Below are positions 7,686 to 46,314 of a DNA stretch of 64,000 bases, piece by piece. The translations under genes were made by a program, and so were the position numbers. The stretch is from Bacteroidota bacterium (GTDB lineage: Bacteria; Bacteroidota; Ignavibacteria; UBA10030), in contig JBBDYD010000137.1 in NCBI GenBank assembly GCA_040901865.1, positions 13,089 to 77,088 of the forward strand, in the 5' to 3' direction. Below the pieces are notes generated by a model. It searched no databases. It had not been told where the DNA came from and saw nothing but the letters and a program-made list of their open reading frames with translations. Positions within the stretch are counted from its first letter, which is position 1; every line of letters starts with the position of its first letter.

Positions 7686-8161
7686 TGGAGCAAGAACGGT
7701 TCCAGAAAGAGTTATTCAGGCATGTGGCAGACCTCCAGGTCCGGAACTATGAGGTTGACTGGCAGGGAATTGTTCATAACGCCGTATACTTGCAGTACTT
7801 TGAGGTGGGTCGCGTGGAGTACCTCAAACAAATCGGTGCGGCGCTTGACCTCAACAGTGTTCGCGGACACAGCAAGGTTGTCCTTGTGAGAAATGAAATT
7901 GATTATCGAAGCTCTTTGACATTTGACGAAAAACTCCAGGTACACTCGAGGATTTCGACAATCCGCAATTCGAGTTTTCTGATGGAGGGGTTGTTGGTCC
8001 GGAAGGAATCCGGGCAACCTGTTTCCACAAATGTCGCCCACCACGTCTGGCTTGATCCCGTCACAAACGCCCCGCTGCGGGTCCCTGACACATTCAGAAA
8101 GCTCGTCCAGGCCTACGAAGGGGCACATTGCTCCATTACCTGGTCTGTGGACGAGGCATGA
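7682..8161 (+). CDS. Acyl-CoA thioesterase, 4HBT/YbgC-like hotdog fold
   Basis: VRNYEVDWQGIVHNAVYLQYFEVGRVEYL matches the D..G.V.N..Y...FE..R pattern of 4HBT thioesterases. Confidence 0.7.
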   Translation: MMEQERFQKELFRHVADLQVRNYEVDWQGIVHNAVYLQYFEVGRVEYLKQIGAALDLNSVRGHSKVVLVRNEIDYRSSLTFDEKLQVHSRISTIRNSSFLMEGLLVRKESGQPVSTNVAHHVWLDPVTNAPLRVPDTFRKLVQAYEGAHCSITWSVDEA

Positions 8162-24109: not shown

Positions 24110-24138
24110 TTGACAAATCAGGGTTGCTTTCCTATATT
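24110..24138 (+). promoter_or_regulatory. Sigma70-like promoter for the respiratory supercluster
   Basis: TTGACA (24110-24115), a 17-nt spacer, then TATATT (24133-24138), about 55 nt upstream of the ferredoxin ATG. Promoter consensus for this lineage is unknown. Confidence 0.45.
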
Positions 24139-24193
24139 GTCTCTGTTATAACCGCATCTCACAATCCGATTCGAGGCTACGAACGCATCGCAC

Positions 24194-24520
24194 ATGAGCG
24201 ACATTCAAGGAACAGCATCTCAAAAGCCTGTGCCCGCCGCAATACCTCCTGTCAAGAAGAAGAAAAAATCAGCTATCATCGCGGTTGTTCATCCGGAAGG
24301 GTGTACCGGGTGTGAAGTCTGTATTGAGTTTTGCCCCGTTGATTGTCTCTACAAGGTTCCCGGACCCGAAAATCCGGAAGAACATGGGTACGTGAGCATG
24401 AATGGAATCGTCATTGTCGATGAAGAGGTCTGCATCGGATGTAAGCTCTGCGCAAAGTACTGTCCGTGGGAAACTATCGACATGGTCAAGAGGGTGGAGG
24501 AGTCTGATGTCGTTGCTTAA
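24194..24520 (+). CDS. 2[4Fe-4S] ferredoxin-type protein with a Lys-rich N-terminus
   Basis: Two CxxCxxCxxxCP motifs, CTGCEVCIEFCP and CIGCKLCAKYCP. No signal peptide. First gene of the Rieske/cytochrome b module. Confidence 0.85.
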   Translation: MSDIQGTASQKPVPAAIPPVKKKKKSAIIAVVHPEGCTGCEVCIEFCPVDCLYKVPGPENPEEHGYVSMNGIVIVDEEVCIGCKLCAKYCPWETIDMVKRVEESDVVA

Positions 24521-24577
24521 CCCTCCCGTGCATTGATTTCCGACTTCTGACAGAATAGACAATCGAAGGAATGCTTC

Positions 24578-25210
24578 ATGTCGGATCAGACAACTGAGAA
24601 TGTCCAAAAGGATACCTCGTCTTCGGGCGGGGCTGGACCAAAGACCACTCCTGTAATTTCTCAAACACCACTTCCCCGAAAACCCAAGCAGGACCGTCCG
24701 GCAGATCAAGACCCCGGGATCTGGCGCACGAATCGGCGCAATGTGCTTGCCGTGACTGGATGGATGGGCTTCTTAGGATTCATTATCATTTCAACTGTTG
24801 GCGCCCTCCGGTACATGTTTCCCCGTGTCCTGTTTGAGCCGCCGACAAAATTCAAGGCCGGTTTTCCACAGGATTTCATGATCGGTGAAGTGAGTGAAAA
24901 GTACAAAGACGAAAAACGGGTCTGGATTGTCCGGGAAAAAGAAGGGTTCTATGCATTGATTTCGATCTGTACTCATCTTGGATGCACTCCGCGTTGGCTC
25001 CCGGGCGATAACAAGTTCAAATGCCCGTGCCATGGGAGCGGGTTCTACAGAACGGGAGTTAATTTTGAGGGTCCGGCTCCCCGTCCCTTGGAACGCGCAT
25101 TTATTGGCATTGCAGACGACGGGCAGTTGCAAATTGACCGTAGCGTGAAATTCCTCTATGAAAAGAATGAGTGGGGAAGAATCGGTTCGTTTCTCCCCTA
25201 CACAGGGTAA
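24578..25210 (+). CDS. Rieske [2Fe-2S] protein of a cytochrome bc/b6f-type complex
   Basis: CTHLGC and CPCHGS boxes. Twin-arginine-like TNRRNVLAV followed by a TM helix. Confidence 0.9.
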   Translation: MSDQTTENVQKDTSSSGGAGPKTTPVISQTPLPRKPKQDRPADQDPGIWRTNRRNVLAVTGWMGFLGFIIISTVGALRYMFPRVLFEPPTKFKAGFPQDFMIGEVSEKYKDEKRVWIVREKEGFYALISICTHLGCTPRWLPGDNKFKCPCHGSGFYRTGVNFEGPAPRPLERAFIGIADDGQLQIDRSVKFLYEKNEWGRIGSFLPYTG

Positions 25211-25225
25211 CTCAGGAGTGCCAGC

Positions 25226-25999
25226 ATGGCATTGATGGAACAATTTAAAAAGTCGGAATTCTATAAATCAATTTTCCGGCATTCGTACCAGGACACACAG
25301 CGAAACCGGGCGCTTCAGATTGTCGATAACGTATTTCTCCATCTCCACCCCGTTCGCGTACCCCGCCATGCGACCAACATTGGTTTCACCTGGGGCATGG
25401 GAGGCATCACCTTCCTCCTGTTCCTTGTCCTGACAATCACCGGCGTGATTCTGATGTTCTATTACCGGCCGACAGCGCAGTATGCGTATGAGGACATGAA
25501 GTACCTCATGAACGACGTTCCGTTCGGTCCGCTGATGCGGAACATGCACCGATGGGCCGCGCACGCAATGGTACTGACGGTGATGCTTCATATGTTCCGG
25601 GTCTTCCTCACCGGCTCATACAAACCACCGCGTCAATTTAACTGGATGGTCGGAGTGATCCTCCTCGTTCTCACATTGCTGCTGAGTTTCTCCGGGTACT
25701 TATTGCCCTGGGATCAGCTTGCGATCTGGGCTGTCACTGTCGGAACGAACATGGCCCGCGCGACCCCGCTGCTTGGCCATGAAGGTCCGTTTGGACCAGA
25801 GCTCGGGATGCGGATTGACAACGATGTTCGATTCGTTCTCCTCGGTGGAACCGAGGTTGGCCCCCCAACCTTGCTACGGTTCTACGTGGGACATTGTATT
25901 TTTCTTCCGTTGATTGCCGTCATTTTCATGGCAGTTCACTTCTGGAGAGTGCGCAAGGATGGCGGCATCTCAGGACCTGAATCCAAAAAGAATTTCTAA
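25226..25999 (+). CDS. Cytochrome b6-like subunit (N-terminal four-helix half of cytochrome b)
   Basis: Heme ligands [15 protein letters not shown] (H-x13-H) and [16 protein letters not shown] (H-x14-H, the b6 spacing). The C-terminal [11 protein letters not shown] resembles the b6 ending. Confidence 0.9.
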
Positions 26000-26031
26000 T
26001 CCGCTGACCAAAAGCCCGGACCGGGAACCTC

Positions 26032-26934
26032 ATGGAACAATTTCTGGAAATCATCTCGAAGCCTGACAATATTCCGATTGTCGCGCTTCTGGTAAGCGTC
26101 ATCTTCTTCTCTTGGCTGGCATGGTCAAAAGCCCGCCGCAACGATGCATTGCCGGTTCCGCTGGAAGCGACAATGGATGACAAGGTGCAGGTGTGGCCCT
26201 ATTTGGTCCGCGTCGAGTTTCTTGCAACCATTGCCGTGATGGCCGTTCTCGTTTTATGGTCGGTGTTTCTTGATGCTCCACTTGAGGAACCTGCAAACCG
26301 AGCCTTGACACCAAACCCTTCGAAGGCTCCATGGTACTTTCTCGGCCTCCAGGAACTCCTGGTTTACTTCGATCCCTGGATTGCGGGCGTCGTGCTTCCA
26401 ACGCTCATTATCGTAGGCCTGATGGCGATCCCGTACATTGATATCAACGAAAAAGGAAACGGGTATTATACGTTTAAGGATCGCAAGTTTTCGATACTGG
26501 TGTTTGCGTTCGGATTTATCGTGTTATGGGTCGCTCTGATCGTCTTGGGAACTTTTATGCGCGGTCCGGGATGGAATTTCTTCCTGCCATGGGAAAAATG
26601 GGATCCCCATTATATCGGCGTTCTCACGAATGTGGATCTTTCGGAACTTCTGGGAATGCCAACGCGATTGCCTGACAACACGCTGAATCCCGCGGCTATG
26701 ATCTTTGGCGCAGTGGTTGTCATCGGATACTATGCCATCGGACCGATTTACTGGATCTTGAAGCGAAAGAACGAGTTGATGCAGAACCTGGGGGTTGTAC
26801 GATACGCGATCGTTTCGTTCCTCCTTCTGAGCATGGGAGGCGTTCTGATCAAAATCCTTCTGCGTCTTGCCCCGACTGCGCTCGGTATGAATCCTGTGAA
26901 ATATGTCTGGGTTACTCCCTGGTTCAACATCTAG
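26032..26934 (+). CDS. Subunit-IV-like C-terminal half of cytochrome b, with extra helices
   Basis: SKAPWYFLGLQELL aligns to the PEWYF...Q.L Qo motif region of subunit IV. 300 aa, so longer than a canonical subunit IV. Confidence 0.8.
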   Translation: MEQFLEIISKPDNIPIVALLVSVIFFSWLAWSKARRNDALPVPLEATMDDKVQVWPYLVRVEFLATIAVMAVLVLWSVFLDAPLEEPANRALTPNPSKAPWYFLGLQELLVYFDPWIAGVVLPTLIIVGLMAIPYIDINEKGNGYYTFKDRKFSILVFAFGFIVLWVALIVLGTFMRGPGWNFFLPWEKWDPHYIGVLTNVDLSELLGMPTRLPDNTLNPAAMIFGAVVVIGYYAIGPIYWILKRKNELMQNLGVVRYAIVSFLLLSMGGVLIKILLRLAPTALGMNPVKYVWVTPWFNI

Positions 26935-27059
26935 TGGTTCTTCAATTAAATAATCTTGTGTTTTCGAGAACGCGAGCACAAGTGGAAGCGGCACTAATGC
27001 CTTTTGAAAAAGCATTGAGTCTGGGCAAATGAAATTGATCGATCGAAGGAGTTCTCGAG

Positions 27060-29693
27060 ATGTTTGAGCAACGCTCTCGCATTCCGGTTGAACAGCGAAG
27101 CTACGGCCGATTTTACATTGCATTCAGCGCGATTCTGTTCCTCGGCACTGTCTGGGCTGTTTGGGATGAAGTGACGGTCCGTCGCCCGTGGAAAGATTAC
27201 CAGGAAGTGTTCTATGCAACGTTATACCAGCGGCTGGATTCACTAAAGCAAGCGGCGGTTTCGGAAATTGATTCCAGTGAAATTGCTGCCTTTGAATCCG
27301 CATTACGCGATGCGCAAGCAGCGTTGAAAACCGATGGATACCTTCAGGCCGCCGAGAAGAAGACGGCATTGCTGGGCGATCTGGAAAATGCAACCCGCGA
27401 ATGGCGATTTGCCAGAAGCAGGTCCGATGCTGCATACTACCAGTATCAAAAGACCGCCTTGTCTGGGGCGGACGCATCATCAGAAAAAGCAGAGGTGGAG
27501 CATCACGACGCACGGATTGCAGAATATGCTGCTGAGATGGCAAACCTGCAGGCACAGATTGCCGTTTATGATACGACAGTCAATATATACGTCGACGCTG
27601 TTCTCAGAGCAACGGCCGATCTTCGCGGACTCTATGTAGCAGCCGACGCCTTCAACTTGAAGCTTGAACTGGCTTCAAGGGCGCCTCGTGATATCAAACA
27701 AGTGATGTTGCCTGATTTCGAATATACTCCGTTCACAGAGATCAAAGCGCGTATCGACCGGTGTCAGACGTGTCACCTGGGCTGGGGGGAAAGCGTCATG
27801 GAGGATGCTCCCCAACCATTTACCAAACATCCGCTGCCAGAGTTGCTCGCAGTCCACAATCCGGAAACCTTCGGATGCACGCCTTGTCATCGCGGTCAGG
27901 GACCGGCCCTGACAGAGGGGTTTGCCCATGGTTTTGAGGACAAACATTGGGAAACACCAATCCTCAAAGGTGTCGAAACCTATGCGACATGCAATACATG
28001 CCATTCTGAAGAAACCGTCCTCAAACACGCGAAACCATTTACGAAGGCCAAACAAATCGTTCTGGAATCCGGTTGCTATGGATGCCATGAGATTAAGGGA
28101 TACACGAATCCTCCCAAAATCGGTCCCGTGTTGAACTCGTTGACCTCGAAAACAACGCCGGAATGGATCTATCGTTGGGTCAAGAATCCAAAAGACTACA
28201 ATCCGCACACGAGAATGCCGAATTTTGAATTTGGAGACAGCGATGCCGAGGCAATCACAGCGTATCTCGTGAAGATCGGACGAGAATCGGACTTCGCTCC
28301 GCAACGGTCCCGCGGCTCATTTGCTGGCGGAAGTGCGTCCCGCGGCAAGGAACTTTTCGAAACAGTTGGATGTCAGGCTTGCCACGTAGCAGGGGGATAC
28401 ACCGCGGTGCGGGATGAACGAGGGACAAGCTATGATGTTGCCCCGGAACTTACGCGCGTTGGCAGCAAGGTGACCGCGGACTGGCTCTTTGATTGGCTCA
28501 AGAATCCCCGCCATTACAATCCGACAACCAGAATGCCAAGCCTCCGCCTCACAGACGACGAAGCACGGAACCTTGTTGCATTCCTCGTGTTGCAAAAGGA
28601 CGAGCGAAGCCTGCCTCGGGTAACGCTTGACCTTGGAAGTCCGGAGAAGATCGCGCGCGGGGATGCTTTGATCCGTGAATTCGGATGCGCTGGGTGCCAT
28701 GAGATCAAGGGAATGGAGCGGGAGGGGAAAGTCAGTGTTGATCTTTCCGACTTCGGCAGAAAGAAAGTCGAGCAAATGGATTTCGGAAACACCCTGCCGC
28801 TCGGTAAGAATACGGATATTGAGTACCAGAAGAATGCGGATGGCACGGTATCGGTCAAGCACACCTGGGCTGGCTGGGTGAAGGGGAAATTGAACAATTC
28901 GAGATTGTACATAACAGAACGAATTGCGCAAAAGATGCCGATCTTTTCGTTTAATGATGAGGAAATAGCGCTGATCCGAACGTTTTTGGTCAGCATGACC
29001 CGAGATGCTCCGCTACCCACGTACCAACATGATTTTACAAAGCGGGTGAAGGACCTTGAAGCCGGGAGGCGACTGTCTGTACAGTATAATTGCATCCAGT
29101 GTCATTCGCTCGAGGATCGGGGAGCATTCATGACAGTGAAATACGAGGATCCCGGGCTCGGACCTCCTCCGCTTCCGGAAAGCCAGGGAGCAAAAGTGCA
29201 GGAACAATGGCTCCATAGCTTCCTCAGGAATCCGACGACCGTTCGCCCGTGGCTGAAACTCCGGATGCCGACGTTTCAGTTGTCCGACCAGGAAATCGGC
29301 ACAATCCAAAAGTACTTCCTTGCAATGTCAAATCAGGATTTTGTAATTCGGGACTATGCCGCCACGACTGTGGAAGCGAAGTACGCGAGCCCGGGGAGAA
29401 AGCTGTTTGAGCTCTATCAGTGCGCCAAGTGTCATCCCTCCGGCACGGCGGACCTGTCGGAACTTTCAGCTTCGGATCTCGCGCCGGACCTTTCGCTGGC
29501 GGCCTCACGTCTCAAGCCGGAGTGGATTGTTGAATGGATTATCGATCCCCAAAAGTTGCAACCGGGAACGCGCATGCCCACGTTCTTTTATGACGGAGAG
29601 GCACCCGATCAGGAAACGCTCGGCGGAGATGTTCGGGAACAGGCGAAGGCTTTGTCAGCTCACATCTGGAATCTCGGGAAACGAAATCGTTAA
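27060..29693 (+). CDS. Membrane-anchored octaheme c-type cytochrome (877 aa)
   Basis: AAGGAG SD. N-terminal TM helix YIAFSAILFLGTVWAVW. Eight CxxCH motifs: CQTCH, CTPCH, CNTCH, CYGCH, CQACH, CAGCH, CIQCH, CAKCH. Confidence 0.85.
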   Translation: MFEQRSRIPVEQRSYGRFYIAFSAILFLGTVWAVWDEVTVRRPWKDYQEVFYATLYQRLDSLKQAAVSEIDSSEIAAFESALRDAQAALKTDGYLQAAEKKTALLGDLENATREWRFARSRSDAAYYQYQKTALSGADASSEKAEVEHHDARIAEYAAEMANLQAQIAVYDTTVNIYVDAVLRATADLRGLYVAADAFNLKLELASRAPRDIKQVMLPDFEYTPFTEIKARIDRCQTCHLGWGESVMEDAPQPFTKHPLPELLAVHNPETFGCTPCHRGQGPALTEGFAHGFEDKHWETPILKGVETYATCNTCHSEETVLKHAKPFTKAKQIVLESGCYGCHEIKGYTNPPKIGPVLNSLTSKTTPEWIYRWVKNPKDYNPHTRMPNFEFGDSDAEAITAYLVKIGRESDFAPQRSRGSFAGGSASRGKELFETVGCQACHVAGGYTAVRDERGTSYDVAPELTRVGSKVTADWLFDWLKNPRHYNPTTRMPSLRLTDDEARNLVAFLVLQKDERSLPRVTLDLGSPEKIARGDALIREFGCAGCHEIKGMEREGKVSVDLSDFGRKKVEQMDFGNTLPLGKNTDIEYQKNADGTVSVKHTWAGWVKGKLNNSRLYITERIAQKMPIFSFNDEEIALIRTFLVSMTRDAPLPTYQHDFTKRVKDLEAGRRLSVQYNCIQCHSLEDRGAFMTVKYEDPGLGPPPLPESQGAKVQEQWLHSFLRNPTTVRPWLKLRMPTFQLSDQEIGTIQKYFLAMSNQDFVIRDYAATTVEAKYASPGRKLFELYQCAKCHPSGTADLSELSASDLAPDLSLAASRLKPEWIVEWIIDPQKLQPGTRMPTFFYDGEAPDQETLGGDVREQAKALSAHIWNLGKRNR

Positions 29694-29733
29694 TGGACCT
29701 TTTTTTTCATTTACATGAAGGAGTGCGAATACG

Positions 29734-30420
29734 ATGAAGGCAATAGGAATCGTTCTGTTGATTGTGGTGGTTGGGATTTCGACGATGTTTGCAGGCGACG
29801 TCACCGGAAAGGTCAAATTCGGTGGAACCGCGCCGAAGGCGGCAAGATTGCGAATGGACGCCGATCGGTTCTGCAAGGCCGCCCATAAAGCTCCCGTAAC
29901 AAGCGAGGAAGTAGTTCTGAACAAGAATGGCACGCTAAAAAACGTCCTCGTGTACGTCAAAGGGCCTGTGAGCGGAAAGTTCACAGCTCCAAAGGACAAG
30001 GCACTGTTTGACCAGCAAGGATGTCTCTATCTTCCGCATGTCCTTGGCGTTCAGACTGGGCAGCAGGTGGAAATACGCAATAGTGACAACACGCTCCACA
30101 ACGTGCACACCCAATCGGACAAAAATCCATCATTTAACGCAGGTCAGCCCATTAAGGGTCATAAGCTTACCAAAACGTTTGAAAAAGCCGAGACCTTTCG
30201 CGTAAAGTGTGATGTCCACTCGTGGATGGGTGCTTACATTGGCGTGTTTGACCATCCGTTCTTCGCGGTAACCGGGGATGACGGAAGTTTCACGTTAAAG
30301 GGAGTGCCTGCGGGAGAGTATACCGTTGAGGCGTGGCATGAAAAGTATGGTTTAAAAACCATGAAGGTCACCGTCCCGGCCTCAGGCAAGCAAACGGTGG
30401 ATTTCAGCTACTCCAACTAG
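29734..30420 (+). CDS. Exported cupredoxin (type-1 copper) protein with a C-terminal CarboxypepD_reg-like beta-sandwich
   Basis: Signal/anchor MKAIGIVLLIVVVGISTMFA. Candidate T1Cu ligands HNVH ... CDVHSWM (C-x2-H-x2-M, amicyanin-like spacing). C-terminal GDDGSFTLKGVPAGEYTVEAWHEKYG. Confidence 0.6.
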   Translation: MKAIGIVLLIVVVGISTMFAGDVTGKVKFGGTAPKAARLRMDADRFCKAAHKAPVTSEEVVLNKNGTLKNVLVYVKGPVSGKFTAPKDKALFDQQGCLYLPHVLGVQTGQQVEIRNSDNTLHNVHTQSDKNPSFNAGQPIKGHKLTKTFEKAETFRVKCDVHSWMGAYIGVFDHPFFAVTGDDGSFTLKGVPAGEYTVEAWHEKYGLKTMKVTVPASGKQTVDFSYSN

Positions 30421-30447
30421 CAGCCCACAGCACATAAGGAGCACACA

Positions 30448-32325
30448 GTGCAGAATGTCGCAACGGCGCCGCACCACGGTGAGGCTGCTCACCACGAAGA
30501 GCGCGCAAGTTTTTGGCGAACATATGTCTTCTCGGTCGATCACAAAGTCATCGGCATCCAGTACATGATGACAGGATTGATTTTTCTGTTTCTCGGCTTC
30601 ACACTGATGATGCTGATGCGATGGCAGATTGCCTATCCCACGAAGTCGATTCCGGGAGAATGGTTCACCCTCCTTCCCGGAGCAATTGCGCTAATCTCCA
30701 TAATTGTCGGATTGATAAGCAAACGGAAGCTCACGATTCTCTTCGGGGTTCTCTTTGGCGGAATCGCCTGGCTTGTTTGGTCCATGGTGTCCGACGAGAC
30801 GCTGTTTCCCCAAGGGATTATGCTTCCGGAGCTCTATAACTCCTTTGGCGCTATGCACGGAACCATCATGGTGTTCCTTGGGGTAGTCCCCATTGCAGTC
30901 GGTGGATTTGGCAACTATGTGGTTCCCTTGCAGGTCGGCGCTCCCGATATGGCTTTTCCGAAACTCAATATGATGAGCTACTGGAGCTATTTTGCCGGTG
31001 GCATCGTCATGTTGTCGAGTTTCTTTATTCCCGGAGGCGCGGCAAATTCCGGATGGACATCGTATCCTCCGTTGTCCGATATCGCAACCACCGGACAGAC
31101 TGTTTGGCTCTTCGGAATGGTATTCCTCATCACGTCGTCTCTCCTGGGATCCGTCAACTTCATTGTGACGATCGTCCAACTCAGAGCGAAGGGCCTGACG
31201 TTCATGCGGCTCCCGTTCTTTGTGTGGGCTCAGCTGGTAACTTCGTTTCTCCTTCTTCTTGCGTTTCCACCTCTTGAAGCCGCTGCGGTTCTTCAGTTAA
31301 TGGATCGCCTTGCCGGTACGAGCTTCTTTTTGCCGAGCGGCCTTGTGATCAGCGGACAGGTTCTCGATGTCTCGGGCGGTGGAAGCCCGCTCCTTTGGCA
31401 GCATCTCTTTTGGTTCCTTGCCCATCCGGAGGTGTACGTGCTGATCCTCCCGGCTATGGGAATCATAGCAGAGGTCATTGCCAACAATACAAGGAAGCCG
31501 CTTTGGGGATATCGCTCGCTCGTCTTCGCAGCTGTGTTTCTGGGATTCATGTCGTTTATCGTCTGGGCCCATCATATGTTCATGACAGGAATGGGAACGG
31601 TGATCAGCACGTTCTTTCAAACCACAACGATGATCATCTCCATCCCGTCAGTCATCATTCTGAGCGCTCTGATCATTTCCCTGTGGGGCGGATCAATTCG
31701 CTTTACGGTTCCAATGTTGTTTGCGGTCGCCTTTCTCCCCATGTTTGGTATTGGCGGACTCACGGGGCTTCCTCTCGGACTTGCGCCTACGGACATCCAT
31801 CTTCATGACACCTATTATGTCATCGGCCATTTTCACTATGTCGTGGCTCCTGGTACGATTTTCGCCCTGTTCGCCGGAATCTATTATTGGTACCCAAAAG
31901 CAACGGGAAGGCTGATGAATACCACGTTGGGAAAGATCCATTTCTGGGGTTCTCTTGCGTGTATGAATGGAGTCTTCTTTCCCATGTTAATCCAGGGGCT
32001 GGCTGGGGTTTCCCGGAGGTTATATGACGGCGGCGCCCAATATGCCCATGCACAGAATGTTCTCCAATGGAATGAAGTAATGTCGGTTTCCGCATGGCTT
32101 CTCGCAATTTTTCAATTGCCATTCATCTTCAACTTCTTCTGGAGCCTGAAAAAGGGGAAAGCGGTGGAATCCGACAATCCCTGGGGAGCTACGACACTCG
32201 AATGGCAAACACCAACGCCACCACCGCATGGGAATTTTTTAAAGGTTCCCGAAGTCTTTAGGGGCCCCTATGAATACAGCGTCCCAAATGCTCCGAAAGA
32301 CTTTCTCGCTCAGAACACTCCATAA
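30448..32325 (+). CDS. ctaD: Heme-copper oxidase subunit I (A-type cytochrome c oxidase)
   Basis: GTG start after AAGGAG. GNYVVPLQVGAPDMAFPKLN, AHPEVYVLILPAMG (helix VI Glu), HHMFMTG, HFHYV motifs. Confidence 0.95.
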   Translation: MQNVATAPHHGEAAHHEERASFWRTYVFSVDHKVIGIQYMMTGLIFLFLGFTLMMLMRWQIAYPTKSIPGEWFTLLPGAIALISIIVGLISKRKLTILFGVLFGGIAWLVWSMVSDETLFPQGIMLPELYNSFGAMHGTIMVFLGVVPIAVGGFGNYVVPLQVGAPDMAFPKLNMMSYWSYFAGGIVMLSSFFIPGGAANSGWTSYPPLSDIATTGQTVWLFGMVFLITSSLLGSVNFIVTIVQLRAKGLTFMRLPFFVWAQLVTSFLLLLAFPPLEAAAVLQLMDRLAGTSFFLPSGLVISGQVLDVSGGGSPLLWQHLFWFLAHPEVYVLILPAMGIIAEVIANNTRKPLWGYRSLVFAAVFLGFMSFIVWAHHMFMTGMGTVISTFFQTTTMIISIPSVIILSALIISLWGGSIRFTVPMLFAVAFLPMFGIGGLTGLPLGLAPTDIHLHDTYYVIGHFHYVVAPGTIFALFAGIYYWYPKATGRLMNTTLGKIHFWGSLACMNGVFFPMLIQGLAGVSRRLYDGGAQYAHAQNVLQWNEVMSVSAWLLAIFQLPFIFNFFWSLKKGKAVESDNPWGATTLEWQTPTPPPHGNFLKVPEVFRGPYEYSVPNAPKDFLAQNTP

Positions 32326-32339
32326 TTCCGGATACTTGC

Positions 32340-32930
32340 ATGCAAATTCCTTATACAGTTGCTGCCCGTCCTGACACGGGACTTCACAACTCCAAGCTGG
32401 GTATTTGGCTGTTTCTGGCTTCCGAAGTGATGCTGTTCGGGGCCCTCTTTTCGTCGTACATCCTCTTGCGCGTGGCCGCCCCCGAATGGCCGCATGGATC
32501 ACTGCTTCTGAATGTTCCTCTCGCATTCCTCAACACCGTTATTCTCATCGGATCGAGCGTGACGATGGTTATGTCCTGGGCATCGTTGATGATGAAGGAC
32601 TTTCAGAAGTACCGACGTTACATGGGACTGACAATCCTCTGCGGGTTCGGCTTTTTGATTGTCAAAGGCTTCGAATACACCGCAAAATTCTCTCATGGGA
32701 TCTTCCCGAGTGAGGACCTCTTTTACGCAACCTACTTCACGCTCACAGGGCTGCATGGTCTTCACGTCATCGGTGGGATTATCGTCAATACGTACTTCTG
32801 GGGACCCGGCAGCCGCATGTGGAAAACAGAACCCGAAAGATTCACAAACAGGGTGGAGGTGGCCGGGCTTTATTGGCACTTTGTCGATCTTGTATGGATT
32901 TTCTTGTTTCCCACTCTCTACCTTTTGTAG
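32340..32930 (+). CDS. ctaE: Cytochrome c oxidase subunit III
   Basis: 196 aa, five helices. LASEVMLFGALF, YFTLTGLHGLHVIGG and YWHFVDLVW motifs. Confidence 0.9.
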   Translation: MQIPYTVAARPDTGLHNSKLGIWLFLASEVMLFGALFSSYILLRVAAPEWPHGSLLLNVPLAFLNTVILIGSSVTMVMSWASLMMKDFQKYRRYMGLTILCGFGFLIVKGFEYTAKFSHGIFPSEDLFYATYFTLTGLHGLHVIGGIIVNTYFWGPGSRMWKTEPERFTNRVEVAGLYWHFVDLVWIFLFPTLYLL

Positions 32931-32938
32931 GAGAATCT

Positions 32939-33238
32939 ATGGAACACACCACCACCGAAGATATCAAGAAGCACGTTCGGAGCTACATTCTTGTTTTTGT
33001 TGCGCTTCTTGCTCTCACCGTGATTACAGTCGGAGTATCCTACCTGCACCTCAGCGTTGTGCCGGCGGTCATTCTGGCTCTTATGATTGCATCCATCAAG
33101 GGAGCACTTGTTGCTTCATATTTCATGCACCTGATTTCCGAAAAGAAGCTGGTATACTTCACACTGGTTCTCACCGCCGTATTTCTCATCACGCTCGTGG
33201 CTCTCCCTCTCCTCGGGTACCACGACAACATTGAATAG
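32939..33238 (+). CDS. Cytochrome oxidase small subunit IV (CoxD/CyoD-like)
   Basis: Internal ATG 32939 after GTAGGAG. 99 aa, three helices. HVRSYILVFVALLALTVITV and ALVASYFMHL are typical of the prokaryotic COX4 family. Confidence 0.7.
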   Translation: MEHTTTEDIKKHVRSYILVFVALLALTVITVGVSYLHLSVVPAVILALMIASIKGALVASYFMHLISEKKLVYFTLVLTAVFLITLVALPLLGYHDNIE

Positions 33239-33240
33239 CC

Positions 33241-33447
33241 ATGTCACTGAAATCATTTCATGTTTTCTTTATTTGCGCGTCGATTCTCTTTCTGATCGGA
33301 TTTGGCGCGTGGTTCCTTGTCACTGAGCCTGTATCTGCGAGGGCTATCAACGTTCTGGGAGGCTTGATGTGTTTCAGCCTTGCGGGCGGCATGGGGGTGT
33401 ACGCCGTACGGTTTCTGCAGAAGTTCAAATCTTTGACAAACCAATGA
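33241..33447 (+). CDS. Small two-helix membrane protein, unknown function
   Basis: 68 aa. Starts 3 nt after the subunit IV stop and overlaps the next ORF (ATGA). Hydrophobic segments FFICASILFLIGFGAWFLV and LGGLMCFSLAGGMGVYAV. Confidence 0.4.
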   Translation: MSLKSFHVFFICASILFLIGFGAWFLVTEPVSARAINVLGGLMCFSLAGGMGVYAVRFLQKFKSLTNQ

Positions 33448-33713
33448 ACAAACAACGTCTTCGGCGGATGGCAGCGAGGGCATTTTCGGATGCACTTCTC
33501 CTGATAGTGTTCGTTGAATCCCAGCTTCTGGCCTGCCCTGTATGCTATGGTGACAAAAATTCAGCGGAGGTGGAAGGAGCCCGTTGGGCCATTCTCTTCC
33601 TCTTAGGAGTGACCGGAACTGTCCTCAGCGGCGTTGTGGCCTTTGTGCTGCACGTCCGGCGCCGATCACGAAAGGCCCAGGATGGGACTGTCGATGTAAG
33701 AAGTTCAAACTAG
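33444..33713 (+). CDS. Small membrane protein with a periplasm-facing CxxC
   Basis: 89 aa from internal ATG 33444. N-terminal signal/anchor, ACPVCYGD motif, second helix WAILFLLGVTGTVLSGVVAFVL, basic tail. Confidence 0.4.
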   Translation: MNKQRLRRMAARAFSDALLLIVFVESQLLACPVCYGDKNSAEVEGARWAILFLLGVTGTVLSGVVAFVLHVRRRSRKAQDGTVDVRSSN

Positions 33714-33727
33714 GAGAGTCTTGATCT

Positions 33728-34669
33728 ATGAATGATTTTCTCGGTCTTCCCCTTGACGCTTCGGCTCACGGACCCGAAATCGATGCCATGATGGGAGTCA
33801 TCCATTGGCTGATGTTCGCCCTGTTCATTGGCTGGGGAATATTCTTTACGTATGTGCTCATTCGGTTCCGACGTTCCCGTCAAGCGTCAGCTGATTATGC
33901 AGGCGTGAAAAGCCACACGTCAACGTATCTTGAAATTGGTGTTGCACTCATCGAGGTTGTACTCATCATTGGTTTTGCCATCCCCTTGTGGGCAAAGCGC
34001 GTCAACGAGTTTCCACCCGACAGCGATGCCGTTGTTGTGAGGGTTGTTGCCGAGCAATTTGCCTGGAATGTCCACTACCCCGGCCCCGATGGGTTATTCG
34101 GACCAACAGACATTTCTCTCGTGAGTGCCGATAACCCGGTTGGACTCGACCGCTCCGACCTGGACGCGAAAGACGACATTGTGACAATTAACCAGCTCGT
34201 ACTGCCTGTTGGAAAACCGGTGATTGTACGGCTTAGCTCAAAGGATGTTATCCATTCCTTTGGTGTTCCCTTGCTGCGAGTGAAGCAAGATGTCATTCCG
34301 GGACAAGTCATTCCTGTATGGTTTGAGCCGGTTGAAACCACAGAACAGATTCAGTTGAAACTGGCGAGGCAGTATTCCCTTTACAATTCCATAGTCAATT
34401 TTTCCACCATGGTTGTTATGGAAGAATACGCCGGGAAGGATAGTACGGTGATTGCCCCGAAGGGCACCGTTTTGTTCCCCGATGTTGTCGATCAACTGCT
34501 TCAGGCAGGGTTCACCGAAGTGCTTGCCTCTCCCGAAACGCCAATGGAGATTGCCTGCGCGCAGTTGTGCGGGCTGGGACACTACCGGATGCGGGCATCG
34601 GTGAGTATAAAATCGATGGAGGAGTACCAGGCCTGGCTGGCAGAAGAGGCTTCTTACCTGCAACCGTGA
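33728..34669 (+). CDS. ctaC: Cytochrome c oxidase subunit II (CuA, no fused cytochrome c domain)
   Basis: Two N-terminal helices. CuA ligands DVIHSF ... CAQLCGLGHYRM. AGGAG SD. Confidence 0.85.
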   Translation: MNDFLGLPLDASAHGPEIDAMMGVIHWLMFALFIGWGIFFTYVLIRFRRSRQASADYAGVKSHTSTYLEIGVALIEVVLIIGFAIPLWAKRVNEFPPDSDAVVVRVVAEQFAWNVHYPGPDGLFGPTDISLVSADNPVGLDRSDLDAKDDIVTINQLVLPVGKPVIVRLSSKDVIHSFGVPLLRVKQDVIPGQVIPVWFEPVETTEQIQLKLARQYSLYNSIVNFSTMVVMEEYAGKDSTVIAPKGTVLFPDVVDQLLQAGFTEVLASPETPMEIACAQLCGLGHYRMRASVSIKSMEEYQAWLAEEASYLQP

Positions 34670-34689
34670 ACGATCGTGAGAGGTAGAGG

Positions 34690-34727
34690 AACTGCCTGCC
34701 TTTCCGGAGGGCAGTTTCTTTTTTTTT
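34690..34727 (+). terminator. Intrinsic terminator or attenuator between coxB and ctaA
   Basis: aactgcc ... ggcagtt stem followed by tcttttttttt, located 10 nt before the ctaA ATG. Confidence 0.6.
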
Positions 34728-34736
34728 GAGGATGCG

Positions 34737-35756
34737 ATGAACAAAGCTTTACATCGGTTTGCCGTCGTTACTGCGTGCTGTACCTTCCTGCTCATAGTAG
34801 CAGGCGGAATGGTGACAAGCACGGGATCTGGACTTGCGGTGCCCGATTGGCCCCTGTCGTACGGTCAGATCATGCCACCGATGGTGGGCGGCATCTTCTA
34901 TGAACATGGCCACCGTATGATTGCCTCATTTGTCGGGTTTCTTACGGTGATCCTTGCGTTCTGGCTGTGGAGGAGAGATCCCAGACGGTGGATGCGTGTC
35001 CTTGGGCTCATCGCCCTTACTGCTGTTATCATCCAGGGGATTCTTGGCGGTCTCACCGTACTCTATCTTTTGCCGGTGGCAATTTCCGTAAGCCATGCGG
35101 CCCTGGCGCAATCGTTCTTTTGTCTTACCGCCCTCATTGCACTCTTTACTTCACAATGGTGGTATAAGGCAACTCCTGTTCTTGAGGAATTGACTGCCCG
35201 CCGGGTTTTCCAAGCGAGTGTCCTTCTCGTGATTTCCGTGTTTCTGCAGTTGATTCTCGGGGCCGTGATGCGTCATACAGGCTCCGGGTTGGCAATCCCG
35301 GATGTGCCTTTTGCGTATGGCCAAATTCTGCCATCACTTGCCCCTGAGTCCCTGCAGCAGTATAATGACATCCAGATTAAGACTGATATGCGACTGGTGG
35401 CTGATGGTCCACTTACTGCTTTTCAGGTCGGAGTTCACTTTTTTCACCGCCTCTGGGCCTTGGCTGTTTTCGGGATTGCGATCTTTGCTTTTGTCCGGTT
35501 TCGCTCTGAATCGGGAATACCGGGCAGACTTCGTTTTCTTTCTGGAAGCATCCTATTCCTTGTGTTTGTCCAGATCGCTCTTGGCGTGCTCACCGTGCTG
35601 ACGCGCAAAAATGAAATTATGACGACAGTGCATGTTGCAACAGGGGCCGTCACACTCGTTGTGAGCGTCCTTCTTGTTCTGCATGTTGCGAAACTCGGGG
35701 GTGCGACGCTTTCCCGGTTTCCGTTGATTCGCTTCCGAAAGGAGGCTCTCGTATGA
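34737..35756 (+). CDS. ctaA: Heme A synthase (COX15/CtaA)
   Basis: VAGGMVTSTGSGLAVPDWPLSYG, YEHGHRM and further His-containing helices (FHRLWA, HVATG). Eight predicted helices. Confidence 0.85.
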   Translation: MNKALHRFAVVTACCTFLLIVAGGMVTSTGSGLAVPDWPLSYGQIMPPMVGGIFYEHGHRMIASFVGFLTVILAFWLWRRDPRRWMRVLGLIALTAVIIQGILGGLTVLYLLPVAISVSHAALAQSFFCLTALIALFTSQWWYKATPVLEELTARRVFQASVLLVISVFLQLILGAVMRHTGSGLAIPDVPFAYGQILPSLAPESLQQYNDIQIKTDMRLVADGPLTAFQVGVHFFHRLWALAVFGIAIFAFVRFRSESGIPGRLRFLSGSILFLVFVQIALGVLTVLTRKNEIMTTVHVATGAVTLVVSVLLVLHVAKLGGATLSRFPLIRFRKEALV

Positions 35757-36679
35757 ACGATCAAATCGCTTCGCGCATAAAAGAGCAACCAGCGATGGGG
35801 CGATCTGCAATATTGGATTTTATCGAGTTGATGAAGCCGGAACTCACAGGATTGTCCGTTCTCACTGCCCTCTGCGGGTATTATCTTGGCGCTGTGACGG
35901 TTAACGGCGTGGACTTTTTCCTGACCGGCCTTGGAACCCTTTTGCTTGGAGGGGGAGCGGGAGCATTAAACCAGTATGCCGAGCGCTCGTTTGATCTGCT
36001 GATGAAGCGTACCGAGCGGAGACCTCTGCCCGCAGGACGATTGAACCCTGACCAGGTGCTGTTCTTTGGGATACTCACCAGCACCGTGGGATTGCTCATC
36101 TTGTTCCTTGGCTTGAACGTCCTGACGGGGGTCCTCGGCGTTGCAACATTTGTTCTCTACTTGTTTGTCTACACTCCTCTGAAACGAAAGACCTGGACCG
36201 CCACGCTCGTAGGTGCGATTCCTGGTGCTCTCCCACCCGTGATAGGATGGACAGCAGCCGGTGGATCTTTGGACCTGTCAGCGGGTATCCTTTTTCTTAT
36301 CCTCTTCCTCTGGCAGATTCCTCACTTTCTTTCTCTCGCGTGGATGTATCGCAAAGATTATGCTCGTGCGGGATACAAAATGCTCACGGTCGTCGATGAG
36401 TCCGGTACAAGGGCGGCAATGCAGAGCCTTCTCTATTGTTCTGCCCTGATTCCCGCGGCGCTCGCTATGACTTTCGTTGGCACAACGGGAACGATGTATG
36501 GAATTGGATCCGTCCTCCTTGGTACTGCGTTCCTTCTGTTTGCTGTTCAGTTCCGAAAGTACACGCGCAAGTCATTGGGCGAACAGGTCCTCGTGAATCA
36601 GCATGCGCGTTTACTCTTCTTCGCTTCCCTGATGTACCTGCCAGCGCTCTTTTTTCTCATGACGGTCGATAAGGTGTGA
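35753..36679 (+). CDS. ctaB: Protoheme IX farnesyltransferase (heme O synthase)
   Basis: UbiA-family motifs NQYAERSFDLLMKRTERRPLPAGRL and YRKDYARAGYKML. Confidence 0.93.
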   Translation: MNDQIASRIKEQPAMGRSAILDFIELMKPELTGLSVLTALCGYYLGAVTVNGVDFFLTGLGTLLLGGGAGALNQYAERSFDLLMKRTERRPLPAGRLNPDQVLFFGILTSTVGLLILFLGLNVLTGVLGVATFVLYLFVYTPLKRKTWTATLVGAIPGALPPVIGWTAAGGSLDLSAGILFLILFLWQIPHFLSLAWMYRKDYARAGYKMLTVVDESGTRAAMQSLLYCSALIPAALAMTFVGTTGTMYGIGSVLLGTAFLLFAVQFRKYTRKSLGEQVLVNQHARLLFFASLMYLPALFFLMTVDKV

Positions 36680-37686
36680 AGAAACAACGCCGCCATGTTC
36701 CACAACCTGCATCGAAGCATCGCACCGCGGTCCCGGATCGTCCTGTTGTCAACATCACAAATCTTTCATATTCCTACCCCGGGCAATCAGCCCTCACAGA
36801 TGTCTCTATCTCCGTTTCCACGGGCGAACGTCTCGGTGTCCTCGGACCCAACGGGAGTGGCAAAAGTACGTTGTTCCGGATTCTTTCCACGCTCCTGCTG
36901 CCATCGGAGGGCGGCGTCGAGATCGATGGTATTGACATCTTACAATCTCCGGATGAGGGAAGACGACGCACGGGCATAGTGTTTCAATCCTCCGGCCTGG
37001 ATCCCAAATTGACAGTTGCCGAAAACCTTTCCTTCCATGGCCACTTTTATGGACTTAGCGGAGTCACTTTGGCCAACCGCGTTCATCACCTCCTCCAATC
37101 TTTTGGACTTCTGGAACGGAAGGATCATAGGGTCGAAATTCTCTCGGGGGGGTTACAAAGGCGAGTCGAGCTTGCGCGTGGTTTACTCCATAAGCCTGCC
37201 GTCCTTGTACTCGACGAGCCGTCGACCGGGTTGGATCCGGCGGCTCGGCTGGACTTCTGGCAGTTCCTTTCCCAATCCATGAAAGAAGGAGGGATGACGG
37301 TTCTTCTTACGACTCATCTGCTCGACGAAGCCGAACGCTGCGACCGCGTTGCTATATTGGATCGCGGAAGGATTGTCGTTTCCGGAACACCCGCAGAACT
37401 CAAAGCATCGCTCGGAGGCGACATTGTAGTCATCACCGCGTCAGACCCGCACCGCCTGGCAAAAAGAATCCGCAGGGAGCTACTCATAGACGGAACAGTG
37501 GTTGATCGGGAACTGCATCTCGAGACCAAAGATGGAGCCCGCCTCATTCCGAGACTCGTGAAGACTTTTTCAGCGTCAATGGAAGCCGTTACAATCAGAA
37601 AACCAGGCCTCCAGGATGTCTTTCTTCGCAAGACCGGACACCAACTCGGTGGAACCGAAAACGATGGAGAAGGGGGCCGGGGATGA
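36676..37686 (+). CDS. ABC transporter ATP-binding protein (ABC-2/DrrA/NosF-like)
   Basis: GTGA overlap with ctaB. GPNGSGKSTLFRIL, LSGGLQRRVELARGL, VLVLDEPSTGLD. Confidence 0.88.
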   Translation: MKKQRRHVPQPASKHRTAVPDRPVVNITNLSYSYPGQSALTDVSISVSTGERLGVLGPNGSGKSTLFRILSTLLLPSEGGVEIDGIDILQSPDEGRRRTGIVFQSSGLDPKLTVAENLSFHGHFYGLSGVTLANRVHHLLQSFGLLERKDHRVEILSGGLQRRVELARGLLHKPAVLVLDEPSTGLDPAARLDFWQFLSQSMKEGGMTVLLTTHLLDEAERCDRVAILDRGRIVVSGTPAELKASLGGDIVVITASDPHRLAKRIRRELLIDGTVVDRELHLETKDGARLIPRLVKTFSASMEAVTIRKPGLQDVFLRKTGHQLGGTENDGEGGRG

Positions 37687-38480
37687 ATGCTGCCTTGACG
37701 CTCGTGCGGCGTGAGGTGCTCCGATTTGGCCGACAGCGGAGCAGGATGATCGGGGTGATCGCATCACCCGTCCTGTTTTGGATTGTGATTGGCTCCGGCC
37801 TCAATAATTCGTTCCAGTATCCCGGTGGTCCACAGGACATGAGCTACCTCGAATATTTTTATCCCGGCACCCTGGTGCTTGTGGTTCTCTTCGCGGCGAT
37901 TTTCTCGTCGATATCGATCATCGAGGACCGGAATCAGGGATTTCTTCAGGCGGTTCTTGTCGCTCCCATACCGCGTGTAAGCATTGTCCTCGGAAAAGTC
38001 CTCGGAATCACAGCATTGGCGGTCTTGCAGGCTGGTATATTTCTTCTTGCCGCACCTCTTATCGTTTCGGGAGCAACGGCCGGGTCTCTTCTCCTTACGT
38101 TCCTGGTTCTTATCCTCGTCGCTCTTGGGCTCTCAGCTCTTGGCTTCTTGATCGCATGGTCCATGGATTCCACTCAAGGCTTTCATGCCATCATGAACCT
38201 CCTGCTTGTTCCCATGTGGTTGCTTTCCGGCGCCCTCTTCCCAGTGAGCGGCTCAGCACCTTGGGTCGCCGCGGTTATGAACTGGAATCCATTGATGTAT
38301 GGTGTCTCCGCTACGCGAAAAGCTTTGTACGGCGTCATCCCTGGTGTTAGCACGGAGCTCCCTTCATTTGGTACGTCGATCAGTGTCTTGGTTCTGTTTT
38401 GGATCCTCGTGGTTACATTGGCCGTCTTCAGAGTGCAGAAACGACAACGAAGCTCCAACCCCCGAAAGGCCGTATCATGA
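37683..38480 (+). CDS. ABC-2 type transporter permease
   Basis: ATGA overlap with the ATPase. Six hydrophobic helices, with the usual YLEYFYPG loop after helix 1. Confidence 0.75.
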   Translation: MNAALTLVRREVLRFGRQRSRMIGVIASPVLFWIVIGSGLNNSFQYPGGPQDMSYLEYFYPGTLVLVVLFAAIFSSISIIEDRNQGFLQAVLVAPIPRVSIVLGKVLGITALAVLQAGIFLLAAPLIVSGATAGSLLLTFLVLILVALGLSALGFLIAWSMDSTQGFHAIMNLLLVPMWLLSGALFPVSGSAPWVAAVMNWNPLMYGVSATRKALYGVIPGVSTELPSFGTSISVLVLFWILVVTLAVFRVQKRQRSSNPRKAVS

Positions 38481-38917
38481 CACCGATGATATTTCCGGAT
38501 GTGAACGCGTTGCTGAACTGCACGGCGTTTGTTCTCCTGTTATTCGGGCGTCGAATGATTGCAACCGGCCGCATTCAGGCTCATCGACGATTCATGATCA
38601 GCACATTTGGCGTTTCATGCCTCTTTCTCATATCCTACCTCACGTACCACGCCCTGTATGGCTCACAATCTTTTTGGGGAACGGGGTGGATTCGGACGGC
38701 CTACCTTGTGATTCTCGGTACCCATTCGGTGTGTGCGGTGGTAATTGTGCCCATGGCGCTCATCACACTGCGTCGAGGATTAAAACGCCAGGATGTGATG
38801 CATAAGCGAATTGCCAGATGGACGTACCCGGTGTGGCTTTACGTGTCGGTGACGGGGGTTGTGATCTACTTGATGCTGTATCAGCTCAGACCGGGGGGGG
38901 TTGACTCATTGACATGA
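38477..38917 (+). CDS. DUF420 (CtaM-like) membrane protein associated with aa3-type oxidases
   Basis: Internal ATG 38477 overlaps the permease stop. Four helices. FPDVNALLNCTAFVLLLFG, HRRFM and HKRIARWTYPVWLYVSVTGV patterns recall DUF420. Confidence 0.65.
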   Translation: MTPMIFPDVNALLNCTAFVLLLFGRRMIATGRIQAHRRFMISTFGVSCLFLISYLTYHALYGSQSFWGTGWIRTAYLVILGTHSVCAVVIVPMALITLRRGLKRQDVMHKRIARWTYPVWLYVSVTGVVIYLMLYQLRPGGVDSLT

Positions 38918-43192: not shown

Positions 43193-43257
43193 TAAAGGCT
43201 TGTTTGTTTGTCCTTTGAGTCGAGGATGTCAGTCATTGAGCGGACAGGGCGCTGTTT

Positions 43258-44655: not shown

Positions 44656-44661
44656 GGTCGT

Positions 44662-46275: not shown

Positions 46276-46314
46276 GCAGTTCAATGGAACGGAATTATCG
46301 TAGGAGGAATGCGT

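Follow-up and report, generated by a model that had tools for sequence, protein, structure and literature searches.

Quinol oxidoreductases built around a Rieske protein and a cytochrome b of the APWY clade, also known as subfamily G, are widespread, and the direction in which they operate is disputed. The APWY clade of Kao and Hunte has no characterised member, and reverse operation has been suggested for it (PMC4122944). Subfamily G of Dibrova et al. is taxonomically mixed and includes Kryptonia (PMC5600118). This cytochrome b clade is already named; for the complexes of Geobacter and anammox bacteria, multiheme partners and additional redox subunits in the cytoplasm have been noted or proposed, the latter for the anammox bc complexes. 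In Ignavibacterium album and Melioribacter roseus, the genes for alternative complex III (ACIII) reportedly lie beside those for a caa3 oxidase, without a comparable Rieske/cytochrome b complex (PMC3362086, PMC3534657). Here we describe a 64,000-nucleotide stretch of DNA (hereafter the window) from the genome of an uncultivated member of the Ignavibacteria, UBA10030 lineage (contig JBBDYD010000137.1, assembly GCA_040901865.1), in which a ferredoxin, an APWY-type bc module, an octaheme cytochrome c, a cupredoxin, an A1-type aa3 oxidase and its assembly factors are encoded one after the other. We estimate the probability at about 0.65 that these genes form one operon for a complete aerobic branch from membrane quinol to O2.

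In this proposed branch, quinol (presumably menaquinol, judging from the lineage) would be oxidised at the Qo site of a complex made of the Rieske protein, a b6-type cytochrome b and an extended subunit IV of the APWY type, subfamily G. We infer the direction of electron flow and the order of the carriers as follows. From the Rieske cluster, the high-potential electron would be handed to the octaheme cytochrome c, a membrane-anchored protein that would stand in for cytochrome c1 or f, and would then move along the His/Met hemes of that protein to the periplasmic type-1-copper cupredoxin. From the cupredoxin it would reach CuA, heme a, the a3-CuB site and finally O2 in an A1-type aa3 oxidase consisting of CoxA, CoxC, CoxD, two small subunits and CoxB. 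The other electron from Qo would travel over the b hemes, as it does in every Q cycle, while the downstream genes would supply heme O and heme A through CtaB and CtaA, and oxidase maturation through CtaM.

Open reading frame (ORF) listing combined with Pfam/NCBIfam scans identified 17 genes between positions 24110 and 38917, all on the + strand, as are all features of the cluster given below. Every gene listed in an earlier reading of this DNA made from its letters (hereafter the sequence-only reading) was found on the strand and in the order given there. Intergenic gaps do not exceed 125 nt, the largest one preceding the octaheme gene; otherwise, neighbouring genes share 4-nt overlaps, of which there are five (orf68/orf89, ctaA/ctaB, ctaB/abcA, abcA/abcP and abcP/DUF420). 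A sigma-70-like promoter, TTGACA-17-TATATT, matching 11 of 12 consensus positions, lies 5' of the ferredoxin gene (24110..24138). The sequence CTTGACA-N17-TATATT and an upstream T-rich element are kept 5' of the ferredoxin gene in 13/13 aligned relatives, which points to a phylogenetic footprint of a genuine operon start. No promoter-like site scored in the internal gaps of the cluster, and an Rfam scan gave no match inside it.

To place the cluster among other genomes, relatives of the octaheme protein were sought in about 186,000 species-representative genomes, one per species, and were found in at least 570 of them. The protein has a 100% identical counterpart in a metagenome-assembled genome (MAG) labelled 'Bacteroidota bacterium', and its nearest relatives carry an Ignavibacterium or Ignavibacteriales annotation and come from MAGs. 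The 17 window proteins were then mapped by tblastn onto 80 loci, and synteny counts take only the loci with sufficient flanking sequence, hence their varying denominators. The order fdx-Rieske-b-IV-octaheme-cupredoxin-coxA-C-D-orf68-orf89-coxB-ctaA-ctaB-(ABC-2)-DUF420 is kept in many Ignavibacteria-type MAGs and persists down to about 50% identity of the octaheme protein, usually with a divergent bshC gene upstream. Such conservation of the full order in dozens of species-level genomes is far beyond chance. A Rieske gene lies upstream of the octaheme gene in 55/58 loci, a cupredoxin gene immediately 3' of it in 45/66, and coxA no more than 5 kb downstream of it in 32/50. The latter two counts lend conserved synteny to the electron path that the sequence-only reading had drawn, from quinol to Rieske/b, multiheme c, cupredoxin and CuA, and this path fits every cofactor signature tested.

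The cluster can also be shorter or differently arranged. The operon stops after the octaheme gene in L045 and after the cupredoxin gene in L076 and L079. In the non-Ignavibacteria loci L072, L073 (Binatia MAG) and L081 (Methylomirabilota MAG), the module is followed by coxB-coxA in the canonical order, and the oxidase belongs to a different lineage with 45% CoxA identity and the K-channel lysine present. This recurrent pairing with A-type oxidases in differing arrangements argues for functional coupling and not merely for an inherited neighbourhood. The conserved core is Rieske/b/IV/octaheme, usually accompanied by the cupredoxin. A larger co-directional bioenergetic block with a different gene order was observed on a Kryptonia-like contig (L085, 1-12811), where genes for COX1, CtaA, CtaB, COX3, COX3, COX4, SCO1 and DUF420 precede those for ATP synthase beta/epsilon, followed by ferredoxin, an Rrf2 regulator, Rieske, cytochrome b, subunit IV and the octaheme protein. 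A horizontally acquired island was considered for the window and ruled out, as GC content is flat and the flanking bshC is co-conserved.

The bc module begins with the gene of a Rieske 2Fe-2S protein (24578..25210), recognised by Pfam Rieske and by PetC-like and bc1-Rieske-like NCBIfam matches below cut-off. The protein is laid out as an N-terminal cytoplasmic tail, an RR motif, one transmembrane (TM) segment and the boxes CTHLGC (residue 131) and CPCHGS (residue 149), both of which are invariant in relatives. In a ferredoxin-less subclade of Ignavibacteria (L018, L019, L026, L040 and L044, at about 7240-8280 in each), the Rieske protein has about 270-320 amino acids (aa) and carries a Pro/Ala-rich, low-complexity N-terminal extension of ~100 aa.

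The next gene (25226..25999) encodes a short b6-type cytochrome b (Pfam Cytochrome_B, E = 3e-44), which reaches 281.6 bits against NCBIfam ExtP, just under the cut-off of 290. Its predicted heme ligands, His108/His122 and His223/His238, are invariant in 66 sequences, and their spacing of 14 and 15 positions is that of the b6 type. The protein reads WGMGG in the window, as do all Ignavibacteria, Kryptonia and Kapabacteria-type proteins, at the site of the heme-ci cysteine of b6f and Firmicutes enzymes. A b6f-like heme ci was ruled out, since WGMGG means that its cysteine is absent. The variant WCMGG, which holds a putative heme-ci cysteine, is limited to L073 and L076, both outside Ignavibacteria.

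The third component of the module (26032..26934) is a 300-aa protein resembling subunit IV (Pfam Cytochrom_B_C/petD-like), with about six hydrophobic segments in a hydrophobicity scan and twice the length of b6f subunit IV; the b6f subunit IV in PDB aligns to its residues 55-168. Its Qo motif APWY is invariant, and the stretch NPSKAPWYFLGLQE is unchanged among relatives. The invariant APWY places the complex in the APWY clade, and it is also assigned to subfamily G. Weaker NCBIfam similarity links subunit IV to ExtQ and part of the octaheme cytochrome to ExtS. Neither Pfam/NCBIfam searches nor a CxxCH scan revealed a gene for an f- or c1-like monoheme subunit in the cluster.

Instead, the module continues with the gene of a membrane-anchored octaheme cytochrome c of 877 aa (27060..29693; Pfam Cytochrom_C, CBB3 and C7). 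The protein has exactly eight CxxCH motifs, all of them invariant in 13 homologues. Its N-terminus comprises a basic stretch and a hydrophobic anchor followed by a helical bundle of about 170 aa (helical region, residues 16-207), after which come three closely spaced c7-like hemes and then five class-I (His/Met) domains. Five (R/K)MP motifs with a predicted Met ligand (residues 385, 491, 625, 735 and 838) are likewise invariant. NCBIfam gave partial QcrC-like and ExtS-like matches, residues 336-517 being like the actinobacterial diheme QcrC, the subunit that wires the bcc complex to the aa3 oxidase in Actinobacteria. A PDB sequence search yielded no solved relative and a single marginal monoheme match. 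An AlphaFold2 (AF2) model built from a 13-sequence alignment had a mean predicted local distance difference test (pLDDT) score of 58, and only its helical N-terminus and part of the class-I domains were modelled with confidence.

The cupredoxin gene follows (29734..30420) and encodes a periplasmic two-domain protein that combines a cupredoxin with a prealbumin-like beta-sandwich (Pfam CarboxypepD_reg). The match to Pfam Copper-bind is weak, at 20.9 bits just under the cut-off of 21.2. The AF2 model has a mean pLDDT of 84, and a Foldseek search with its central domain placed amicyanin, plastocyanin and pseudoazurin on top (probability 1.00; target-normalised TM-score, TMt, ~0.68). The predicted type-1 copper ligands, H122 and C159-x2-H162-x2-M165 in an amicyanin-type loop, are invariant in 52 homologues from several phyla. 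The protein carries only a cleavable-looking signal peptide, as in diffusible carriers. Its family is large, a database search returning 6,151 proteins with E-values up to 1e-3, and its members are named 'carboxypeptidase regulatory-like domain-containing protein' by NCBI and plastocyanin by JGI. The cupredoxin is genetically part of the bc module, with which it stays where the oxidase is absent, much as plastocyanin is paired with b6f.

The oxidase genes start with coxA (30448..32325), which encodes an A1-type heme-copper oxidase subunit I (Pfam COX1, E = 5e-131) whose best PDB matches are aa3 oxidases. The catalytic motifs MHGT, HPEVY, AHHMF, HFHYV and APDMAFP are kept and cover the six His ligands of heme a, heme a3 and CuB, the cross-link Tyr, the Glu of HPEVY and the D-channel Asp. 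A nitric oxide reductase was ruled out by the presence of the CuB histidines and of the cross-link Tyr. The K-channel lysine is essential in canonical A-type oxidases. In the window CoxA it is missing from TM8 (residues ~396-414), where IPSVIILSAL aligns without gaps opposite VPTGVKFFNW of 7q21_D. Its position is occupied by Ile in the window and by Ile or Val in all of the ~38 Ignavibacteria-type CoxA proteins, whereas L072 and L073 have Lys. The upstream stretch of TM8 is hydroxyl-rich (FFQTTTMIISIPS), reminiscent of Lys-less B-type channels, and K-channel variants and losses have been reported for family A (PMC8239418). CoxA also bears a two-helix insertion between TM1 and TM2 (residues ~65-124, window 30640-30820), which is restricted to the window, L002, L007 and L013; other carriers of the cluster lack it.

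Downstream of coxA lie coxC (32340..32930), for a short form of subunit III (Pfam COX3; NCBIfam CtaE-like), and coxD (likely start 32942, end 33238), for a caa3-type subunit IV (Pfam COX4_pro; TIGR02229 at 48.3 bits, above the cut-off of 37.25). The next two genes gave no Pfam/NCBIfam match. The first one, orf68 (33241..33447), encodes a 68-aa protein with two TM segments and a conserved N-terminus MSLKxFH, occupies the same position in 28 loci and is a candidate extra oxidase subunit. The second one, orf89 (33444..33713), encodes 89 aa with a signal or lipobox-like peptide, a CP(V/S)CYG motif (CPVC in the window), one TM segment and a basic tail. The gene is kept in 30 loci, in which the C-x-x-C-Y-G motif and the TM segment are conserved, making its product a candidate oxidase subunit or copper-handling factor.

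The last structural gene, coxB (33728..34669), encodes subunit II (Pfam COX2; TIGR02866 at 124.5 bits, below cut-off). Its predicted CuA ligands are H176 and C277-A-Q-L-C281-G-L-G-H285-Y-R-M288, with Gln instead of the canonical Glu, and no CxxCH motif, i.e. no heme c, is found in the protein. These observations agree with the earlier description of a CuA subunit without a fused cytochrome c encoded downstream of subunits I, III and IV. The presence of CuA ruled out a quinol oxidase, and the lack of heme c on CoxB ruled out the caa3 type. With CuA and without heme c, CoxB would need an external one-electron donor, for which the octaheme protein and the cupredoxin are the only candidates encoded nearby. 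CoxB matches subunit II of P. denitrificans in two pieces. A 66-aa insertion separates H176 from C277, bringing the His-to-Cys distance to 101 residues versus the canonical 35. Across relatives, this distance is 35, about 101-104, 150 or 211 residues, corresponding to 0 to 3 tandem copies of a ~50-66-aa module with the motif G..[LF]..D.V..L..AG[IV]..V. The insertion may offer the electron donor a surface to dock on.

A terminator-like hairpin occupies the gap between coxB and ctaA (34696..34727), with an 8-bp stem at 34696-34714 followed by the T-run TTTCTTTTTT; the whole gap folds at -29.4 kcal/mol. This bears out the hairpin reported in the sequence-only reading, with the restriction that a similar hairpin and T-run are confined to the window and to its close relatives L002, L007 and L008. 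In other relatives, coxB and ctaA are no more than 25 nt apart. The hairpin is probably a partial terminator or attenuator, through which the assembly genes are probably expressed less than the structural ones. Beyond it lie ctaA (34737..35756), for heme A synthase (Pfam COX15-CtaA, E = 2e-36), and ctaB (35753..36679), for heme O synthase (Pfam UbiA/CtaB; TIGR01473 at 281.7 bits, above the cut-off of 210.3), which together imply heme A. The final gene (likely start 38477, end 38917) encodes a DUF420 protein (Pfam DUF420, E = 4e-42), the equivalent of CtaM, which is required for aa3 function in S. aureus (PMC4958251). CtaA, CtaB and CtaM/DUF420 fit an aa3 enzyme. The interval between ctaB and the DUF420 gene (36676-38480) is taken up by an accessory ABC-2 transporter pair, a putative exporter, that occurs in a minority of syntenic loci (permease in 9), consisting of a DrrA-like ATPase (36676..37686; Pfam ABC_tran, TIGR01188 below cut-off) and a DrrB-like permease (37683..38480; Pfam ABC2_membrane, TIGR01247 below cut-off).

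The gene that opens the cluster (24194..24520) encodes a 108-aa 2[4Fe-4S] ferredoxin (Pfam Fer4 and Fer4_21) with two CxxCxxCxxxCP motifs, at residues 37-48 and 80-91, and a conserved KKKKK stretch ahead of the core. The protein is predicted to be cytoplasmic because it has neither a signal peptide nor a twin-arginine translocation (Tat) motif. It is 75-91% identical across relatives and ranks among the most conserved proteins of the cluster, as illustrated by L017, where identity is 85% for the ferredoxin, 86% for cytochrome b and 52% for the octaheme protein. Homologues with 55-67% identity are again encoded upstream of the Rieske/b/IV/octaheme genes in L082 and L085. Another homologue, P0360, lies in an unrelated gene context, and membership in this ferredoxin family alone therefore does not imply association with a bc complex. 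PDB searches with the ferredoxin returned generic polyferredoxin, NuoI and PsaC matches only. Among the relatives, no clean rule related the presence of the ferredoxin to the heme-ci cysteine or to the length of the Rieske N-terminus.

The sequence-only reading had posited an extra cytoplasmic Fe-S subunit. The cytoplasmic location stood, together with a conservation equal to that of cytochrome b; the status of a subunit is weakened, as a ferredoxin gene lies upstream of the octaheme gene in only 27/58 loci. The protein is a lineage-specific accessory that probably docks on the N-side of the bc module. We think it unlikely that it is a true N-side subunit of a heme-ci-less APWY-type bc complex, exchanging electrons with the Q cycle. 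In that case, the low-potential Qo electron might exit through the b hemes to the ferredoxin, resulting in quinol-driven ferredoxin reduction at a cost borne by the O2-linked high-potential branch, or reduced ferredoxin might feed the Q cycle directly. If true, the cluster would encode an energy-coupling Rieske/cytochrome b enzyme of a new kind with a hard-wired link to an aa3 oxidase.

Several observations weigh against a single quinol-to-O2 operon. The bc/octaheme(/cupredoxin) module stands without an adjacent oxidase in 18/50 loci; the module is thus separable from the oxidase, which may be one of several acceptors. The ferredoxin gene is missing from about half of the loci (31/58), a terminator-like hairpin parts coxB from ctaA in the window genome, and the catalytic competence of a CoxA without the K-channel lysine has to be assumed. 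Furthermore, the APWY clade, with no characterised member, has been proposed to run in reverse (PMC4122944). The hairpin, along with the 125-nt gap ahead of the octaheme gene, could speak for separate, functionally unrelated transcription units that happen to be adjacent, one for the bc module, one for the structural genes of the oxidase and one for assembly; vertical inheritance alone could explain a block that is conserved in Ignavibacteria including its divergent bshC. We consider this highly improbable, given that the module is also paired with A-type oxidases in other phyla, where gene order and oxidase lineage differ, that coxB and ctaA are at most 25 nt apart in most relatives and that the internal gaps hold no scoring promoter-like site.

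At the other extreme, the sequence-only reading had seen in the cluster the blueprint of a bc/aa3 supercomplex, which in obligate form would have the octaheme protein and the cupredoxin as fixed internal wires and the ferredoxin as a stoichiometric cytoplasmic subunit. Such an assembly would suit the grouping of all parts behind one conserved promoter, a CoxB without fused heme c in a cluster that encodes no soluble monoheme c, and the resemblance of part of the octaheme protein to QcrC of the obligate actinobacterial supercomplex. The lineage-specific insertions of CoxA and CoxB and the two extra small membrane proteins would offer possible interfaces, and the ferredoxin, about as conserved as cytochrome b in L017, repeatedly adjoins Rieske genes. 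However, the loci lacking an oxidase or a ferredoxin weaken this proposal, genomes that share the cluster differ in their insertions, which may be absent or present in several copies, and the signal peptide of the cupredoxin looks like that of a diffusible carrier. An obligate supercomplex is therefore possible but doubtful. Alternatively, the cluster could be a branch point, as in Acidithiobacillus ferrooxidans, with a periplasmic or extracellular donor feeding the octaheme protein or the cupredoxin, most electrons running downhill to aa3 and some uphill through the APWY-type bc complex to quinone, perhaps to ferredoxin. Besides the reverse working proposed for the APWY clade (PMC4122944), this would accommodate the likeness of cytochrome b, subunit IV and part of the cytochrome to Geobacter ExtP/ExtQ/ExtS, which are linked to extracellular redox chemistry (PMC5877670), and the cupredoxin-plus-COX operons typical of iron oxidisers (PMC8239418); three close c7-like hemes and a long helical stalk would also be superfluous for a plain c1 role. 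Yet no outer-membrane cytochrome, porin or Cyc2-like gene was found in or beside the cluster, whose flanks are housekeeping genes, and a bc complex and an oxidase under one promoter suit a linear chain better. Moreover, the Ignavibacteria in cultivation are organoheterotrophs whose caa3 oxidase requires a complex III equivalent (PMC3362086, PMC3534657). We find a branch point improbable and retain the linear quinol-to-O2 branch as our preferred reading.

Outside the cluster, bshC (bacillithiol biosynthesis; 22308-23951, - strand) is divergent from the operon promoter region and keeps this position in 36 related loci, which may be a mere conserved neighbourhood. A co-directional block on the - strand (42161-51988) encodes a radical SAM/SPASM protein, an arylsulfotransferase-like protein, a double methyltransferase, two B12-binding radical SAM enzymes, a GT29-like glycosyltransferase, another methyltransferase and a 342-aa protein without Pfam match, and resembles a cluster for modification or for a natural product, with no relation to the respiratory operon. 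Genes for tRNA-Lys(TTT) and tRNA-Leu(GAG) were found at 1255-1503. The latter overlaps the 5' end of ORF 1358-2302 (TPR protein), indicating that the true start of this ORF lies further downstream.

Comparison with described systems shows which parts of the cluster are familiar. Like cytochrome b6f and plastocyanin, it combines a split cytochrome b with b6 His spacing, a Qo motif on subunit IV and a Rieske protein, and electrons would probably leave through a blue copper protein. In contrast to b6f, the window has an 877-aa octaheme cytochrome c instead of cytochrome f, WGMGG without the heme-ci cysteine, APWY instead of PEWY at the Qo site and a subunit IV of double length. Its cupredoxin has an extra beta-sandwich domain, and an oxidase would take the place of the photosystem as acceptor. 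With the actinobacterial bcc-aa3 system (QcrCAB and CtaCDEF; PDB 7q21 and 6adq), it shares clustered bc and aa3 genes and a multi-heme membrane-anchored c subunit that replaces c1 and a soluble c; the octaheme protein partly matches the QcrC model, and CoxA is most similar to actinobacterial and proteobacterial aa3 enzymes. The actinobacterial system differs by an unsplit long cytochrome b with PDWY, a diheme c and the lack of both cupredoxin and ferredoxin, and its supercomplex has been demonstrated, whereas that of the window cluster would be deduced from genes.

Within the APWY clade or subfamily G, the ExtOPQS proteins of Geobacter, the p-cresol cluster and the anammox bc complexes belong to the same b/IV clade (PMC4122944, PMC5600118) and have multiheme c partners. 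These clusters are linked to anaerobic or extracellular chemistry, with proposed reverse running or bifurcation, and none has been described beside an aa3 oxidase with a cupredoxin; the description of the ext cluster lists no ferredoxin gene (PMC5877670). The rus operon of Acidithiobacillus ferrooxidans (cyc2-cyc1-cup-coxBACD-rus) also brings together a c-type cytochrome, a cupredoxin and an aa3 oxidase (PMC8239418). It differs in having no bc complex, in its outer-membrane Cyc2, absent from the window cluster, and in its role in acidophilic iron oxidation. Full-text literature searches retrieved no paper describing the combination of ferredoxin, APWY bc complex, octaheme protein, cupredoxin and aa3 oxidase (coxA-C-D-x-x-coxB), and the cluster is widespread in public MAGs without annotation as a system. 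An APWY complex encoded directly upstream of an aa3 oxidase in one operon thus provides a concrete, testable model for forward, quinol-oxidising operation, and structural work can be aimed at the optional ferredoxin, at an oxidase whose K-channel lysine is missing and at the modular insertions in the CuA domain.

A parallel in the same phylogenetic neighbourhood is provided by the ACIII-caa3 clusters of Ignavibacterium album, Melioribacter roseus, Rhodothermus and Flavobacterium, which follow the same logic in that the genes of a quinol oxidoreductase with multiheme c subunits lie just upstream of those for an A-type oxidase and for its assembly (PMC3362086, PMC3534657). In these clusters, however, ACIII is unrelated to Rieske/cytochrome b complexes, heme c is fused to subunit II, coxB precedes coxA and there is no cupredoxin. 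The window cluster is the Rieske/b counterpart of this arrangement in uncultivated relatives, and it shows which system many uncultivated Ignavibacteria have in place of alternative complex III.

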